Assembly: GCA_001929475.1 (NCBI GenBank)
Contig: LXFE01000332.1
Span: forward strand, 1 to 54,428
Length of the DNA: 54,428 bases
Reading direction: 5' to 3'
Source of the DNA: Neolecta irregularis DAH-3
Lineage: Eukaryota
The position numbers and the translations under genes are program-made. Shown piece after piece: positions 7,101 through 54,099 of the stretch (position 1 is the first letter of the stretch; every line of letters starts with the position of its first letter). The notes beneath the pieces are model-generated. The model ran no database searches. It had not been told where the DNA came from and was given only the letters and a program-made list of their open reading frames with translations.

Positions 7101-7656
7101 CTTTTGATAGATTTTGCTCATGGCCGAGCGTAAAGAAGTTGCAGGATGTGTCATTTTATCGTTATACGTGTCACGCGAAGCGCTCTTGACGAAAATACCT
7201 TTACCGCAATGGCTTCCTAGCGTCCGTACATCACATCAAAGACTTCTCGAAGGCGTTCGTCAGAGGACTCGCTCTGAAACCGACTCGCCAATGGACGACG
7301 AAGAGATGAGTAAACTGAGAAATATCTGTTGGAATGCTACCACTGGAATATTTGAAGAGGTTTGTTTCCACCTTGAAATTTACCCTTAAATCCCACAGAT
7401 TATAGAGTATATCGAAGAACTTTTGGGACTTGTTCGGAGTCTTGTCGGTGATCATGAACTTTGCGCCCCGCCACTGACACGACCCATAACTCCGCAATCG
7501 ATTCATTCGAGATCCAGAACAATGCCGACCCTTGCTCGAATTCAAACTCTAGACGATAGACCTGGTAGTGGCATAACGCGTAGTTATAGTCACAGTGGAA
7601 GTATTGAAGTCATGCATAGGGTCCAATCAAGAAAACTATCAATGATTAAACAGTAG
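4127..7656 (+). CDS. Multi-pass membrane protein, aromatic acid exporter / FUSC-like (ArAE_2, Bre4-related) family
   Basis: About 17 exons join in frame. Motifs HPGRTIGTM, KFGLKIMIGVSLLIWPVF, RACGTFLGGLYGW, FPVRARDKL and EPRVKAPFP are typical of fungal ArAE_2/FUSC_2 proteins. The start may instead be ATG 4066 with an extra intron. Confidence 0.8.
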
Positions 7657-8128
7657 AGAGAGTCATATCCCGTATTAATTACTAGCACTTGGGGTAAAAG
7701 GATGCTCAAGAAGCTGGAGAAAACTCTGAAACTCTTATAAACACTTTCTTCTTCCCGCTTCCCCCTTCTATTTTAGACTTAAATACTAAAACAGCATACA
7801 CTTATAGTTTACATGTTTTTGGTGGCTTATAAATTTTGACACGCTTCATGCTCCTTTCGAATATCTGCTTGTCGAGGATATGTCTCAAGGATATGAGGAG
7901 GAAGAGTCTTCAAACGATCATGGAAATAAAAGATCGCAAGTTAGATAGAGAATGTGATGATGAGTATCCGCCTCTGATTGGTCTCCTGATATGATACTGA
8001 GTGGAAAGTAAGACGAGGAAAGCGTGCCCCAAGCTCATTTTATTGAGTGTACTAGATGTTGAGTAATTGATTGACGGGGTATTAAGCGTATTATCATTAC
8101 CATTCAACGCTGGATGAAAGGACTCCCA

Positions 8129-8680
8129 TTAACCAAGTCGTTCCAGATACTCCAATCGACCCATTACCACGCCTTTGTTCATTTCTTGAATTTCGCCTGC
8201 AAGAAACACCTCATCCAAGATACCATATACCTGAGATTATGTAAGAACCCCTGTAAATGAAGAGTACTTTGTAAAAGTTAAAGACCAGATCCAGTTCGCA
8301 GACGTTTCCAAAAAACTGATCTAAAATCTCGACAAAGAAGTGAATTGCTTCAAGATACGCCAATTCGTTGTCATTGGCGTCGACGCATATGCAGAAAAAT
8401 AGCCCCGCGTAACGACGGTATACTATCTTATGGTTTCGAAACTCCACAAAATTACTCTGATATTTCTGATCCCGCGTTGCAACTACTCGATGAACTTCCC
8501 CCTTAATTTTGATCTTTTCTGCGTCCTAAATTTTCAACAGGGGTTCATATGTCTAGTATTTCCTACCGTGTATGGTACATACCATTTTGAAAGGCGGGTC
8601 TTTCCTTGCCTATTTTGCACGAGAATGAATTGTATCCGTAGAAGAGTCAAAATAGGCTAGAAACAAGAATGAAATACCAT
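8129..8680 (-). CDS. APS2: AP-2 adaptor complex sigma subunit
   Basis: [20 protein letters not shown]...[78 protein letters not shown]. Three introns; the first has an unusual acceptor (see findings). Confidence 0.95.
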
Positions 8681-9005
8681 GCTAAGGCCTGCGAGCTCAC
8701 AGAGTTGGTCTCCAAGGTCGAGTTGCCTCACGTGGATAAATGAGCGAACTTATTCTTGTCGAATAACGCTTCACACAGCAATGACAGCAGTTTTGCATGA
8801 CATTTATGTTTCTGGCATATATCATATGCATCAAAGTATCCGTCTTCAAGAACTAGTGTATCCATGTTGAAATCTTTTACCATAATTTGATTCAAAATAT
8901 CAGCCAGGCTACGTCATGTAAAGTTGTAAGTCGAACGTTCCTCTATCGAAAGGCAGTCGTAAATCATTTATTTTAGCGCCTTTCATGCATTATTGCTCCC
9001 CATAA

Positions 9006-12000
9006 ATGGTCAAAAAAGACGGAAGGCAGAAACAGAAACTTGCCAAACCGGCTAGCAGCAGGTTTGACCAACCGGCTAAATATCGTTGAATACATTATAG
9101 TCGGGCACAAATAGGTGAATCGCCAAATCCATTATTATCAAGTCTTCTCGTCTCGTCAAGTCGATCTCCCACAGTAGAACTCGCCGACTTCTCAAAGCTT
9201 CCTCCAGAACTGCATGTAATTTTCAAGAACTTGACGAAAAAGGATGCAAAAACAAAATCAAGAGCACTCGACGAATTTTCTATCTGGCTCGAAAATCACA
9301 GAGACTACTCGGAAGAGACTTCAAAGACATGGGTATGTAGGCTCTTGTTATGATATTTTGAACCAACAGCTCTAGTTTCGAGTATACAATAAACTGGTCA
9401 TTGATGTGGAAAGAACTATCCGAATTCGTGTACACACAGTACATGGTATAGTCTGTAGAACTGCAGGCAAGCGGGCTTCGAAATATTTCAATGAATTCAT
9501 TGGAGCCTGGCTGACCACGACGAATGAAGTTGACTATGGAGTCTCCAAGGCCGCATTAGAAAGCTTCAAATTGGTATTCCCAGAATCGAGACGCACGGAT
9601 GTTTGGAAAGTATTCTCTGGACCTATACTCGATTATATTGTTCGTATCATCTGCTTTGAAACAGAGCAGACGCTAAGTATTATGGCTGATTTTGTGTACT
9701 CTGATAAATCAAGGTGATGAGAAATACACCACAAAGCAAGACGCCGAGGCAAAGTACTTTAGGATTGTTGTTAGCTGTCTCAGAACATTGTGTTATATGC
9801 TGGGTATGCCATTCTCGTATAATACTTCATTTAAGCTTGTCAGGAAATGTGGAAGATATCACACCCCAATATTCCAATTTCGTCAATGAATTGCTTTCGT
9901 CCAAGAAACTTCTTCAGTTGGCATTGCGTCCAGAAGGAATTCTTAAATCCCAGTTATTCAAATTCTTGCAGATTATCTTGAACTCGCATCGCCGTAGGTC
10001 TCCTGAATAATTATTCTTACACCTAGAATTAATTACTTCTCATTGTCAAACTTTGGCAGAGGAGATCCTAGCTCCATGTTTCAAATCCCCTCCTCTCGAT
10101 AGTTCAGTAGCAGATTTCATGGGAACTGTACTTCTGATCAGCAAAAGTATGACTAGTTTAAGTTCGTCTCTAACAGAAAGCCATTCCAGAGGTTTGGGCA
10201 TCATTGCCATCAGCCTCCCGGTTTCCTTCGCGGTTTAGCCGGTTATTAAAAAAGGCCAGTTACGGAACTGGTGCTGAATTTTGGTCAAGTTGCTCCTCTT
10301 TGATCCCGACCTTGCCGTTAATAGTATTACCTCGGGATATGAAGACGACAGAGGCAATACTGGAAGCTTCGTGGGAGGGAGTGAATCAAGAGATGATCGG
10401 ACACAAATTTGTAGCGCTCGAGAATTACTTCACGATGGCATACTGGTTCCACGACAATGTGCTTGACGATAAGAAAAATTGCGAAGTGATGTCCCATTTC
10501 ATACTCTCAAAGTTGGACGTGCTTTTATTTACATCAAGTCCTATAAGAGAAAACCATCACTCTGTTTTGTTCGCGAAAGTGATCGGGGTTATCAGTCAAA
10601 TCCGTAACGGAGTTCTGGACCTTGAATGGACCCATTTGGCTCATAGATTGCAGTTTGCAATGATGGAAGGGAAATCCAATGAGGTCTGCTCTCCAATTTC
10701 TTTGGCGGAATCCGGACAAAGGTTTATCGATGCCTTGACATCTTTCAATAATGATGCACTTGATTCAAGGCGTGTGGAACTCATATTGGGTACGCTTAGT
10801 ACCATCCGAAAACAGGAGGGTACTAAATGTTACTTGCAAATCAAAGCTAAAGAGACAGGGTCAACCATCGACAATATTAAGATTTTGAATGCAGCTGTAG
10901 CTCAGTTTCCTAAGGCTATTTTGAAAAGACCCGAGATTCATTCCGTACGAACTACTATATTCTAGTCTTACCACCAGGCGTTACAATCATTCGCACAGTA
11001 CGAAATTCCACAGCTTGTCTCGGTTGGGATTGCTAAGCTTGTAACACAGATTTTCATCAACATTCTTGAAGTTTATCAGCACGACCCGGACGCTAGCGCT
11101 AGTTTGAAGCCTACGTTAACATTACTACTGGCCTCAGAGCAAACCTCTGAAATTGTTTTAAATGGATTGCTTAATCGTTCTCTCAAAATCATAGACTCGG
11201 CGGATATCGATGCATTTGTTTCGCAAAAGCTCCAGAAAGATAACATATCGACGGAGGATTGGAATTTGATATGCGATATTATTACATGTCAAGGTGAACC
11301 ATTTATTGACTTTGCTGCTCATCATAAACAGATAATTCTTTAATACCTGATACAATTAACAATACTTTGTCGAAACTGGTGGCGAAACTCGATTCGAAAA
11401 CAGAAAACTCGGATGTCGTCGACAATACAGTCGATATTATTTCAAAAATGTTGAAAGTCAATGACAGAAACCTTCTCGAAGTGGTCATTAGCAATCCTGT
11501 CTCCGTACAGATCATAATGTTGTCCGCAAGGTATCGGTCACAAGGACCTTTGCAGGAATTCGGGGTTTCTTTAAATAACGCCCTTGAACTCATCCAGAAA
11601 CCGATACTTACTTTAAAGTTCTGGGCCGATGTGTTTTCACAATTGAAGAAAGCTCTGATAAACGTTGAATCTGAGGACCATGCATTGTAATGTCACCATA
11701 AAATGATCCATTGTTAATGCCTAAGGGAGCTGACCGATCAAGCCAAATATATACTAGACGCGCTCTCACCCGAACTGTTCTCACAAGTTTCATGTTTGGC
11801 CATACTGCAGTCAGATATTTGGAGGACTATTTACTCACTTGTCATGAAGGACTGCTCGCCTAGTTCAATCGCAGTCACGGACTCACTCTTGCTTCTGCCC
11901 TACTCATGCGATAATACTGGCGAAGGTACCACTCCGTATGACTCTTTTGGATATTCCGCATTTTTTAGAGTCTGCACGTATACCAAGGAACTTTTGACAA

Positions 12001-14324
12001 GTTTCCCAACAATAATGAAACATCTAGAAACATCTACTGCTGCATTGATCATAGAATATTTACTTCGCGCAAGTCAGATTGCTATCGATCAAGATCATTC
12101 AGGGCAAGATGCTGGTCTTTGGAGTGGAAATGAGTTGACTGGCTCCTCCTTCCTCCATGAATTTTCCCAAAAAATCACAAAAATAATATCTTCAATATTA
12201 CAGAAATCGGAATCGAAATCGGATCAATGGATATTGGATATATTACAAAGACGAATCGAACCGAAAGACATACCGGATCATCTGCTCTCCTCCCTTGTTA
12301 TGAGCACTCAAAACCATTCATATACAGGACTACTTTCTGCTAGAGTTTTACGATCCGTACTCAATACCTGTACCGCCGATCGTACGCACAACTATTTGAA
12401 CGTCTTGGAGAATTTTGACTTCCGACGGCCAACAAACGCGTTTCTTCAAGCCAGTTTACTGTCAGCATGCCTAAAGCCCTCCCAGTATCTCAATAAACTT
12501 GAGAATGAACTTGTAAGTGATATATCAGGCTCCTGCGATTCCCGAGATTTTACCACCAAGCTTGTATTTCTCAATATTGTACTTGCAGAGCAAGAAATTT
12601 CTGCAGTTCCACAACCCAGAAGAATAGTCCTTCTAAAAAAGGTTTTATCTATGGGGAGCCACAATACCATCGTCGCGCGTCTGGTAGTTCAGATGGTTCG
12701 GGGCGTAGATAGCATTTGCGGTCAACACTGGGATCTGATTTTCCACTGCTTGCAACAATGGATACAGGTCATCGATTCTTTCCGCTGGAAATTTTCTTAC
12801 TTGTAGACATGCATTGATGGTCCCAAGCACACATTACCGCTACGTTATGCAGTTTTGAAGCTGGTGGGAATTCTGAAATCCATCTACATCAAAAATGATG
12901 ACCTCGAAGATTTATGGAATGACGGCTTGCCCAAGATAGAACATAAATTGGTCACCATGCTCATTCAAACTCGAGGTCCAATATTAATAGGTTATACGTG
13001 CACTAATACAACCAGATTTTACAAGTCTTATCGAGCAACATTGCAACGATGCACTTGTGCAAACTCTTGATTTAGTCCGACCAGATAAATTATCAGAGGA
13101 TGACTACCTTGAAGTGTGTTACAATTTATTTTATCTCAATACTGATCTTGACCAGTTATATGGTCTTGTCACTCTTCCAAAACATTCTCCTTTCCAAAAA
13201 ACTTTCAATATTCTTGAAACCCAGATCAGATCACACAACTCGGACCTTGTTGTTCAACTTGCGTTGAATGAGGATGTTAATGCGTCGATACCGGGTCAGC
13301 TATTATCTCTTTTGATTCATCCTAGTGATGGCTGGGAGGCGGCTTGGTTCCTACTCTTCTTTTTCTTTGATAAGATTGTACCACCGCCATGCAGGTCTTT
13401 CTGATAGACTAGTCTTCCAATCTTCGGAGTAGATACTTGGAGATTCTGAGAAACGGAAGTTATGTCGACCTTCTGATGACTACTCTTTGCTCGCTATTCG
13501 AGCTCGACACAGACAGACCTTATTCGCCGACTCACGATGTTCTCAACGTCAGTATTTGGAATTGGAATGGAGACGAAAAAAAGCTCGGAGTTCGTTTATA
13601 TACCGAGGCAATGATTAGAATAGGGAGCTTAATCCGGTATGCATCATATGTAAAGAGAATTAATCATTCAGTGGTTGGTGGTCCGATTGCAAATCCAGAG
13701 GACTGACCGTATCCGTTGAAAAGTACCAACCTAGTGTAATCGGACTGATTTTGCAAGGTTTACGGAACGCCATATTTCACCACTTGTTATTGAACATGAA
13801 CTCGATGCTGTTCGTAGAGCACTAGACCAATATAGCTTTGAAGAAAACTTGCTGGTTCAGATTCGAAAAGCCGAAGTCAGTGCTATCTATCACCTCGATG
13901 AACATTACATGGCAATGCAGATGTCTCTTCCTCCGCAATATCCGCTTCTTCATATCGAAGTCAGTGGGCCCCAACGAGTCGGGGTCAAAGAATCTCAGTG
14001 GAGGGCATGGCTGCTGGCATCACAGGGAATGATCACAAGTCAATCCGGTTCTATCATAGATGCACTCAGTTTATTCGAGAAAAACGTCAGACTTCATTTC
14101 GAGGGTGTTCAAGAATGCGCAATCTGCTATAGTGTCCTTAGTATTGATGCACGAATGGTACCCGGAAAGAAATGCGCCCAATGTCGGGGAGTGTTCCACG
14201 CCGGGTGTCTTTATAAGGTATATCCTGAGCATTTCGCAAATCCTGATGATTGTAGTGGTTCAAAAGTTCTAATGCTTCCTCTTGCCCTCTTTGTAGAAGT
14301 AATTTTTCTTTTGCCAGTCGGTAA
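9006..14324 (+). CDS. RKR1: Listerin E3 ubiquitin ligase (ribosome quality control)
   Basis: About 18 exons. N-terminal VIFKNLTKKDAKTKSRAL motif, HEAT-like body, RWD-like segment (LPPQYPL...QWRAWLL) and a C-terminal RING ECAICYS...[29 protein letters not shown] completed across the last intron. TAA at 14322-14324. Confidence 0.93.
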
Positions 14325-51778: not shown

Positions 51779-54099
51779 ATGGGCGACCGTAATCTTTATT
51801 CCCATTATCTGTCTGAGTTTTAGGAGGACCTCCACGTGTGAAGAACAAGGCGCCTAATCCTATTCAAATCACAGCAGAACAAGTACGTCTACGAATTTAC
51901 TAAATGTAATTTGGCAAGCTCCTTCGGGAAGCGTTCGAGCGCCGAGAACCAGAGCTTCAAATCCCAAAGCATCGCATTAGCGATCTAGAAGAAGTGTGTT
52001 TCGTTCCCGTGATTATCAAATCTGACTATCAGCTTCAAGAATTCCAGTCACGAAAACGAAGAGAGTTCGAAGATGGCATTCGTCGAAATCGTCTGCAGAT
52101 GGGAAATTGGAAGCGTTATGCTCAGTTTGAAGTCGAGCAGAATGAATTTGCCAGAGCACGATCAGTGTTTGAAAGAGCTCTAGATGTCACATATCAAGAT
52201 ATTCCCCTTTGGTTGGCATACATAGATATGGAGATGAAAAGTCGGAATATCCAACATGCAAGGAATCTTCTGGATCGTGCCGTCACCCTTCTTCCTAGAG
52301 TCGATAAATTTTGGTACAAGTATATCCTTCCGCAAAAGAAAATTGTGCTGATTCTCATAGATATGTTTACTTAGAGGAAACTCTTGGTAATATCGCTGGC
52401 ACTCGACAAGTTTTTGAAAGATGGACTATGTGGGAACCAGATGAAGACGCGTGGAGTGCATATATAAAAATGGAAAAGAGGTACGGTGAATACGGACTCG
52501 CACGAACGATTTTTGAAAAATTCACGATAGTTCACCCAGAGCCCAAAAATTGGATCAAATGGGCGAGATTCGAAGACGATTATGGAACACCAGGTATCTC
52601 ATGTCCTATGACTTCTTACCAATCAGTAGAAAACGTACGCGAAGTTTTCACTCTAGCCATTGACACGCTTGGAGATGAATTCATGGATGAGAAGGTATTC
52701 ATAGCCTACGCCCGCTTCGAAGCGAAGCAAAAAGAATACGAACGAGCCCGTGTGGTCTACAAATATGCACTAGACCGTTTACCTCGAAGTAAAGCCGCTT
52801 CATTATACCGACATTATACAACCTTTGAAAAACAATTTGGCGACACAGACGGTATTGAAGATGTTATTTTAACTAAACGTCGGCTTGCATACGAATCAGA
52901 AATCAAAGACAACCCCAAAAACTTCGATATTTGGTTTGATCTCACACGACTGGAAGAGACTGCTGGAGATGTAACGCGAGTTCGGGAAACTTATGAACGT
53001 GCAATAGCGCAATTACCGCCAAGTCAAGAAAAGAAACATTGGAGGCGGTATATTTACTTATGGCTTAATTACGCCGTTTACGAAGAACTCGAAACAAACG
53101 ATTATCAACGTGCGCGCGAGATTTATCGGGCTTGTATAAAGTTGGTTCCACACAAGATTTTCACGTTTGCAAAGGTGTGGATCGCGTTTGCCTTATTTGA
53201 AATTAGGCGTTTGGATGTATCGGGTGCAAGGAAAATCTTGGGACAAGCAATTGGCATGTGTCCCAAAGAGCGGTTGTTTAAAGGATATGTTGATCTCGAA
53301 ACCCAGGTTTCACCATCTAAGAGATTATGCTAACTATGGTAGCTACGAGAATTTGACAGGTGTCGGATATTGTATCAAAAATATCTCATGTTTCGGCCAG
53401 AGAATTGTTCAGCTTGGATCAAATATGCTGAACTCGAACGGATGCTAGGAGATCTCGATCTTGCTCGACATATTTATGAGCTTGGTCTCAAAATGGAAGA
53501 ACTCGACATGCCCGAGCTCTTATGGAAGGCCTACATTGACTTTGAGTTTGAAGAGGAAGAGTACGATTGTTGTCGGACCTTGTACGAAAGACTCCTCGAA
53601 AAGACTTCCCATGTTAAAGTTTGGATCTCCTTTGCACGCTTTGAAATCAGTCTCGACCTTGAGGATGACAAGGAACGTGCCGAAAACGTTTTCAAGAGAG
53701 CAGAAAAGGAATTTAAAGAGCAGGGGCTAAAGGAAGAGGTATGTTTAGGTGTTTCTGGATATGTTTAATTTATTGTAGAGGGTTGTTCTCATGGAGGCTT
53801 GGCATAAATTTGAACAAGAATGTGGAACACCAGCTGATGTTGTCGAAATCGAGAAACGAATGCCGAAGACTATTTCTAAGAGGCAAAGATTGGATGATGG
53901 TACTTTTGAAGAAGTATGCTTTCCATTTATCTGATGAAATCTGATATTTTAGTATTACGACTACATCTTCCCGATGGATGAAGGTGATCAGCAATCAAAG
54001 ATGTCTAAATTGATGGACGCTGCTGCTGCTTGGAAAGAGAATATGAGAAAGAAACAGGAATCCAGAGCTACTGCTCAGAGTTCGGGCGGTATAAAATAA
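51779..54099 (+). CDS. CLF1: Pre-mRNA splicing factor Clf1/Syf3/Cwf4 (crooked neck), HAT repeats
   Basis: [98 protein letters not shown] and EEYYDYIFP. About 9 exons. TAA at 54097-54099. Confidence 0.96.

Follow-up and report, generated by a model that had tools for sequence, protein, structure and literature searches.

We describe a predicted AP-2 sigma gene of Neolecta irregularis DAH-3 which appears to carry, directly behind its start codon, a 42-nt intron that begins with GT and ends with GG. The gene was located by frame reading and homology on the minus strand at 8128-8680 of a contig of 54,428 nt, which was analysed in its whole length and is called the window below. We regard as established the bases, the reading frame, the colinear alignment to solved AP-2 sigma and the agreement of the 42 nt with the local intron shape; from these we infer the use of the GG site. 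Thus, we tentatively favor a genuine short U2-type intron, the GG acceptor of which is still used, perhaps inefficiently.

Structure and identity of the gene

The features of the gene are collected in Table 1. On the minus strand the ATG at 8680-8678 is followed by GTATTTCATTCTTGTTTCTAGCCTATTTTGACTCTTCTACGG (8677-8636, 42 nt, GT...GG), and ATA CAA TTC ATT CTC, i.e. IQFIL, continues from 8635. Exon 3 was used to assign the gene to a family. It is 80-92% identical to fungal AP-2 sigma proteins of several phyla among the 120 matches listed, all of which carry the domain PF01217 (Clat_adaptor_s) and most of which, where named, are called AP-2 sigma or AP17. Comparison with the PDB gave an E-value of 2.7e-36 for AP-2 sigma, while the values for the sigma subunits of AP-1, AP-4 and AP-3 were 5e-24, 1e-16 and 2e-15, respectively. 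The alignment of exon 2 begins at residue 2 of the solved AP-2, AP-1 and AP-4 sigma chains. As judged from these alignments, the gene belongs to the AP-2 sigma family, with clearly weaker likeness to the sigma subunits of AP-1, AP-4 and AP-3. A preliminary description of this DNA had recognised an AP sigma subunit, which agrees with the alignment of exons 2 and 3 to solved AP-2 sigma chains.

Table 1. Positions of the parts of the AP-2 sigma gene in the window
Feature	Position	Strand	Remarks
Start codon ATG, the entire coding part of exon 1	8678..8680	-	Directly 5' of GTATTT; sole ATG on the same strand between 8681-8795 and exon 2
Candidate intron 1, GT...CGG, 42 nt (favored)	8636..8677	-	When it is excised, M precedes IQFIL, in register with residues 1-2 of solved AP-2 sigma; length inside the range (33-49 nt) of the 29 reference introns
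Alternative interval, GT...AG, 21 nt (disfavored)	8657..8677	-	12 nt below the shortest of 29 reference introns
Branch-like motif TTGAC	8646..8650	-	A at 8647; 11 nt from A to intron end
Exon 2, 23 residues	8567..8635	-	Aligns with residues 2-23 of PDB AP-2 sigma chains
Predicted intron 2, GT-AG, 41 nt	8526..8566	-	Read from the sequence; required for the in-frame joining of exons 2 and 3
Exon 3, 86 codons (P0001)	8268..8525	-	Aligns with residues 25-109 of PDB AP-2 sigma; covered by a contig of run X2
Intron 3, GT-AG, 37 nt	8231..8267	-	37 nt skipped in a contig of run X2 (joint 8227/8265, cut +3, i.e. 8228-8264)
Exon 4, coding part including stop TAA (8130-8128)	8128..8230	-	Covered by a contig of run X2
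3' UTR intron, GT-AG, 49 nt	8052..8100	-	Begins 27 nt past the stop codon; skipped in a contig of run X2

Exons 2 to 4 cover the approximately 142 residues of AP-2 sigma colinearly, i.e. residues 2-23, residues 25-109 and the C-terminus. Residue 1 comes into the correct register, with Met directly before I2-x-F-I-L, only when the GG site serves as the acceptor. The remaining 142 codons of the gene are intact and highly conserved.

The interval begins with GTATTT and finishes with CTACGG. Without splicing, the frame from the ATG at 8680 runs into TAG. A sequence scan found no ATG on the sigma strand between 8681 and 8795. The single AG within the 42 nt is located at 8658-8657; its use results in the 21-nt alternative and inserts the seven residues PILTLLR. 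The preliminary description had claimed the TAG, the lack of another in-frame ATG, the CGG end, the 21-nt alternative with its seven residues and a TTGAC branch-like motif shortly upstream of the CGG, and the sequence agrees with it.

As a side observation, the stretch TTCATTCTTGT within the interval (8663-8673) is a 10-of-11 copy of TTCATTCTCGT in exon 2 (8619-8629, codons F-I-L-V), 44 nt downstream. Such a likeness may indicate an origin of the intron by duplication or may be due to chance. Shuffled sequences reached the score in 181 of 5000, 112 of 3000 and 133 of 3000 cases, about 4%, and the likeness does not extend any further. We considered it too weak to support a duplication as the source of the intron.

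Introns of the window

We compared the interval with 29 introns of the window, comprising 7 of the Clf1 gene and 19 of the listerin gene, both obtained by mapping of public proteins to the DNA, and 3 of the sigma gene. The public Clf1 protein matches the window exactly across eight exons, and that of listerin, P0363, shows 100% identity to it. Three of the 29, namely listerin 9062-9100, sigma intron 3 and the 49-nt 3' UTR intron, were seen directly as skips in contigs of run X2. All 29 are GT-AG introns; however, 26 were derived from public models, the building rules of which are not visible, and a pipeline that admits canonical borders only would bar any other end than AG from the set. Their length was 33 to 49 nt with a median of 38 nt. 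Position -3 was occupied by T in 15, by C in 9, by A in 5 and by G in none of the 29. A strict yTnAy motif was located 6 to 14 nt from the 3' end in 20 of the 29, while such a motif was present in 16% of random 42-mers. An AG upstream of the one used was found in 21 of the 29, i.e. an internal AG 5' of the branch motif is normal locally.

Chaining of open reading frames ab initio was too ambiguous a source of further introns and was used solely for two candidates of 32 nt (2076-2107 and 43566-43535), which are unverified. The minimum of 32 nt quoted in the preliminary description equals these two, but among the reference introns the minimum was 33 nt.

The 42-nt interval shares its properties with these introns up to the last two bases. 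GTATTT is a typical 5' site by local standards: 22 of the 29 introns have A at +3, and 14 have T at +4. The C at -3 occurs likewise in nearly a third of the set (9/29). Both the length of 42 nt and the position of TTGAC, 11 nt from the end, lie within the local ranges, and two reference introns have the same spacing of 11 nt from branch motif to end. The final 21 nt contain 71% pyrimidines, a proportion that only 0.85% of 2233 exon 21-mers reached; as a point against the 42-nt reading, it is also higher than at all 11 intron ends compared. The interval terminates with GG instead of the canonical AG, and this last dinucleotide is its sole departure from the pattern of the 29 reference introns. 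Yet, strings starting with GTA, 33 to 49 nt long, with a branch motif and a Y-GG end occurred 118 times in the window as compared to 132 strings with a Y-AG end. Because the former are about as common by chance as the latter, the likeness to an intron by itself has little weight, and it is reading frame, homology and the absence of another start that carry the case.

Three details of the reference introns were recorded in addition. Listerin intron 8 (10945-10977, plus strand, 33 nt) contains an in-frame TAG at nt 21, followed by a CTTAC branch motif and a CAG acceptor 12 nt on. The public model bypasses the TAG at nt 21 and takes the 33-nt form; both forms are in frame, and the layout is the same as that of the sigma candidate. 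Listerin intron 6 (10147-10180, plus strand) ends with ...CTAACAGAAAG, where the public model bypasses a CAG 2 nt past the branch A for an AAG 4 nt later. This choice hints at a minimum distance from branch point to acceptor in Neolecta. The reference introns at 52320-52360 and 14218-14255, both on the plus strand, share their first nine bases, GTATATCCT, which Clf1 intron 3 continues with GTATATCCTTCC. From its third base on, GTATATCCT resembles ATATCCTT, a 5' site of the U12-type. Without a matching branch site these two U12-like 5' ends are probably due to chance.

The N-terminus in relatives

We surveyed the N-terminus of the protein in 80 metagenomic fungal loci, many of them near-duplicates and most of them Pezizomycotina-like. 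None is close to Neolecta; in the conserved exon they are at most 92% identical, i.e. no nearer than the distant fungi of the protein matches. The N-terminal motif [IL]xF[IV]L was found in 74 of the 80 loci, with a Met 0 residues before it in 21 and 1 residue before it in 53, and was not found in the other 6. Among the 120 protein models listed, 49 begin with M and carry the motif at an offset of 1 (33 models), 2 (15 models) or 4 (one model). The motif is preceded by three residues at most in every relative surveyed. The seven-residue insert that the 21-nt reading entails was present in none of the 74 loci and in none of the 49 models. An intron straight after the ATG was not seen in any of the 74 metagenomic loci with the motif; hence the statement of the preliminary description that such an intron is common in sigma genes did not hold in this sample.

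Genomic and cDNA-like reads

In the Logan assembly of DNA run X1, a contig with a mean word depth of 405 agrees with every base of the window from 7600 to 9300, and no variant is listed. X1 is the sole DNA run that holds the stretch fully and, as it may be the source run of the assembly, is not an independent sample. Nevertheless, the agreement rules out that the GG bases are an artefact of a single assembler. The preliminary description had named an assembly error for CAG as a possible refutation, and the re-assembly of X1 yielded the same CGG.

A search for sequencing runs that contain the stretch listed no RNA run. Run X2 is marked 'DNA?', yet three short GT-AG intervals are missing from its contigs, each on the proper strand: 8052-8100, 8228-8264 (cut +3) and 9060-9098 (cut +2). 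X2 therefore behaves like a transcriptome or cDNA assembly. Its contigs cover the listerin gene as well as sigma exons 3 and 4, which are correctly joined. They do not cover 8527-8935, so that introns 1 and 2 lie outside, and no transcript across the junction of intron 1 was seen among the X2 contigs. The contig of exons 3 and 4 begins exactly at 8526, a base that is common to the ends of exon 2, exon 1 and intron 2. We read this start as a fork of the assembly graph, where the reads continue upstream in more than one way; drawn from one study, this reading carries no weight. At its other side, an X2 contig of 1518 nt extends more than 1.1 kb beyond the 49-nt 3' UTR intron (7600-8051 compared) into a region where the longest frames are on the plus strand. 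This extension suggests a long 3' UTR or overlapping convergent transcripts.

Use of the GG site and alternative readings

If the 42 nt at 8677-8636 are a true U2-type intron with GG as its last two bases, the spliceosome would pair with the 5' site GTATTT, use the A of TTGAC as the branch point and cut 11 nt past it between CGG and ATA. The 3' cut would be fixed by the distance from the branch point because there is no AG between the latter and the conserved exon. Joining of the ATG to 8635 places M directly before the residues of exon 2, and the product would be a normal protein, M-IQFIL..., possibly made at lower efficiency. Intron length, position of the branch motif and colinearity with the conserved N-terminus favor the 42-nt form over the 21-nt form. 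That all 29 reference introns end with AG argues against use of the GG site, as does the rarity of GT-GG wherever such introns were counted (0.04%). The AG ends also speak for the rival which we take most seriously, though we consider it less likely: a recent and real A-to-G change at -2 in the sequenced individual would have crippled an ordinary GT-AG intron. The transcript would then be retained, mis-spliced to the next AG or deprived of exon 2, and little or no normal sigma would be made, while the rest of the gene would be intact since the change is young. The next AG past the branch motif is AAT AG/G inside exon 2, which is out of frame. A change of A to G at -2 is known to destroy splicing, as reported for SLC26A4 c.919-2A>G (PMC8987850), where the same base was changed at the same intron position, use of the site was abolished and the exon was skipped. 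Changes from AG to GG also occur at otherwise normal introns, an example being an intron of BANP, described as GT-GG in most vertebrates and as GT-AG in fishes (PMC4176328). By a rough estimate, the frequency per intron of splice-site lesions in a wild isolate and that of working GT-GG introns are similar, so that both priors lie at about 1e-4 to 1e-3. Against a lesion speak the intactness and the high conservation of the other 142 codons, with exon 3 reaching 92% identity to its counterparts in several fungal phyla, and the presence of properly joined exons 3 and 4 in the cDNA-like X2 contigs. AP-2 is of importance to the polar growth of filamentous ascomycetes, and selection should therefore act against a null allele. 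As the rest of the gene is intact and highly conserved, use of GG is favored, but only by a small margin. The dilemma stated in the preliminary description, that splicing must be non-standard whether the 42-nt or the 21-nt form is excised, is real, and the local evidence favors the 42 nt. Its list of ordinary ways out, however, contained the assembly error only; a damaging A-to-G change is a priori about as likely as a working GT-GG intron, and use of the GG site is the conditional part of the claim.

The other readings were judged improbable to various degrees. Excision of the 21 nt 8677-8657, which would yield a protein with PILTLLR added, is the only GT-AG solution that uses the ATG at 8680 in frame, and TTCAT formally is a yTnAy motif, 13 nt from the AG. 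However, this interval is 12 nt shorter than the 33 nt of the shortest reference intron, and the sole A that could serve as its branch point is 7 nt away from the 5' end, where 5' site and branch site would overlap. In local introns of the minimum length of 33 nt, with the motif 7 nt before the 3' end, this distance is approximately 25 nt. The 21 nt it would add to the coding sequence are, at 71% pyrimidine, unlike exons, none of the relatives surveyed carries the insert, and an in-frame 21-nt option of the same shape is unused by the public listerin model. In sum, we regard the 21-nt form as improbable. Even smaller is the chance of a base error in an ordinary intron with a true CAG end. It would be the simplest explanation, and the only run that fully holds the stretch may be the source of the assembly; against it, the separate Logan assembly of X1 gives the same bases at the depth stated above and without a listed variant. 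We rate another start just as low, be it an upstream coding exon that is spliced onto the acceptor ctAG or translation of the unspliced messenger from a non-AUG codon behind the TAG (ATT, TTG or ATA), either of which the preliminary description had offered as a refutation. Farther upstream, 14 donors (GT or GC) come with an in-frame ATG and could be joined to the acceptor at 8657, e.g. ATG/GTAAAA at 8883/8880. But these donors need introns of 70 to 224 nt in contrast to the 33 to 49 nt of all 29 local introns, every upstream exon adds PILTLLR plus foreign residues that were seen in no relative, and an X2 contig of the listerin gene on the opposite strand begins at 8936, which leaves little space for an upstream exon. 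Near-cognate starts behind an upstream frame of 7 codons would be very inefficient, which counts against the non-AUG start. An intron of the U12-type, which is spliced by the minor spliceosome and belongs to a class that tolerates GT-GG ends, is the least probable reading and hardly to be expected here. The consensus of this type is RTATCCTT for the 5' site and TCCTTRAC for the branch site, and the spacing of 11 nt from branch point to end would suit the class. The 5' end of the interval, GTATTTCA, matches the consensus GTATCCTT in the first 4 of 8 bases only, and ATTTTGAC matches TCCTTRAC in 5 of 8, i.e. neither the 5' site nor the branch site of the 42-nt interval is U12-like by this consensus. 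GT-GG recurs as a non-canonical border of U12-type introns; for human and mouse, 8 such introns were listed (PMC1557818, Table 2). They share the terminal dinucleotides and the short distance from branch point to end with the Neolecta candidate but differ by their 5' site and branch consensus. A pan-eukaryote survey reported the minor spliceosome to be absent from Ascomycota and found no convincing minor introns there (bioRxiv 10.1101/2022.09.24.509304). An Rfam search of the window gave no match at all, snRNAs included.

Relation to known GT-GG introns

GT-GG introns are already documented in fungi, and the Neolecta candidate, if real, joins that rare class. The manually curated annotation of Ganoderma lingzhi is reported to contain 38 GT-GG introns, 0.041%, which places this type third after GC-AG and GT-AC among the rare borders; the same paper states that poorly recognised non-canonical sites harm gene prediction (PMC11590231). 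An RNA-seq study of Fusarium graminearum lists GT-GG among the non-canonical sites and describes Sanger confirmation for seven genes with non-canonical sites (PMC3577648). These rare U2-type introns resemble the Neolecta candidate in having a GT start and a GG end in an otherwise ordinary short intron. They are backed by transcripts, whereas the Neolecta candidate is known from DNA sequence alone. Furthermore, the latter directly follows the start codon, so that missing it removes the whole gene model and does not just alter it, unlike the cases in G. lingzhi and F. graminearum. The BANP intron has a GG 3' site in common with the candidate; it is AG in related lineages, and the GG form is described as spliced and conserved (PMC4176328). 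BANP differs in being a vertebrate intron of another architecture. The main text of the Neolecta genome paper, which has its methods in supplements, does not contain the words 'intron', 'splice' or 'RNA-seq' (PMC5309816), and PMC8476143 mentions Neolecta in the methods only.

If the GG site is used, the locus shows in a clean form how a minimal intron with its branch point 11 nt from the cut can have a GG acceptor. It would be useful to study how far the choice of a 3' site depends on AG when the distance from branch point to end is short. If GG is not used, a conserved gene of trafficking bears a natural lesion of its splice site here. The very short introns of Neolecta, with the branch point 6 to 14 nt from the 3' end, may even allow the distance to set the 3' cut so that ends other than AG are tolerated in general. 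The GT-GG intron would in that case belong to a whole class hidden by GT-AG-only models, and conserved genes, AP-2 sigma among them, would wrongly appear to be absent from the published proteome; we mention this as a speculation with little probability.

The missing public model and the gene neighborhood

Searches of proteins of 47-151 and of 152-2000 residues yielded no public protein model that holds sigma exon 3 at more than 92% identity. The protein collection is clustered at 90% identity, and the whole sigma protein is about 83% identical to P0004, which represents the largest near cluster; therefore it should not be hidden within that cluster. The public models of Clf1 and listerin from the same contig are present in the collection. 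Thus AP-2 sigma seems to be unannotated in the public gene set of Neolecta. Because the only ATG directly precedes the 42-nt interval, a missing sigma model is what a predictor restricted to canonical borders would give, though the building of the public models is not visible. The GG end may accordingly explain the absent model. Comparisons of gene presence could then wrongly score AP-2 sigma as lost in a key early-diverging filamentous ascomycete.

As to the neighborhood, the Clf1 reading frame is located at 52308-53330 and has Pre-mRNA-splicing factor CLF1 of Neolecta irregularis DAH-3 as its best match. Neighboring frames gave Pfam matches to listerin, a SUN-family protein, Tam41, a forkhead protein, Ima1 and stomatin (Band_7). 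The sigma and listerin genes are divergent neighbors with 325 nt between their start codons (8681-9005). Fused public models that combine PF01217 with listerin domains exist in Orbilia, Arthrobotrys and Dactylellina (P0280, P0281, P0283 and P0285), which suggests that the adjacency of the sigma and listerin genes is old within the Ascomycota.
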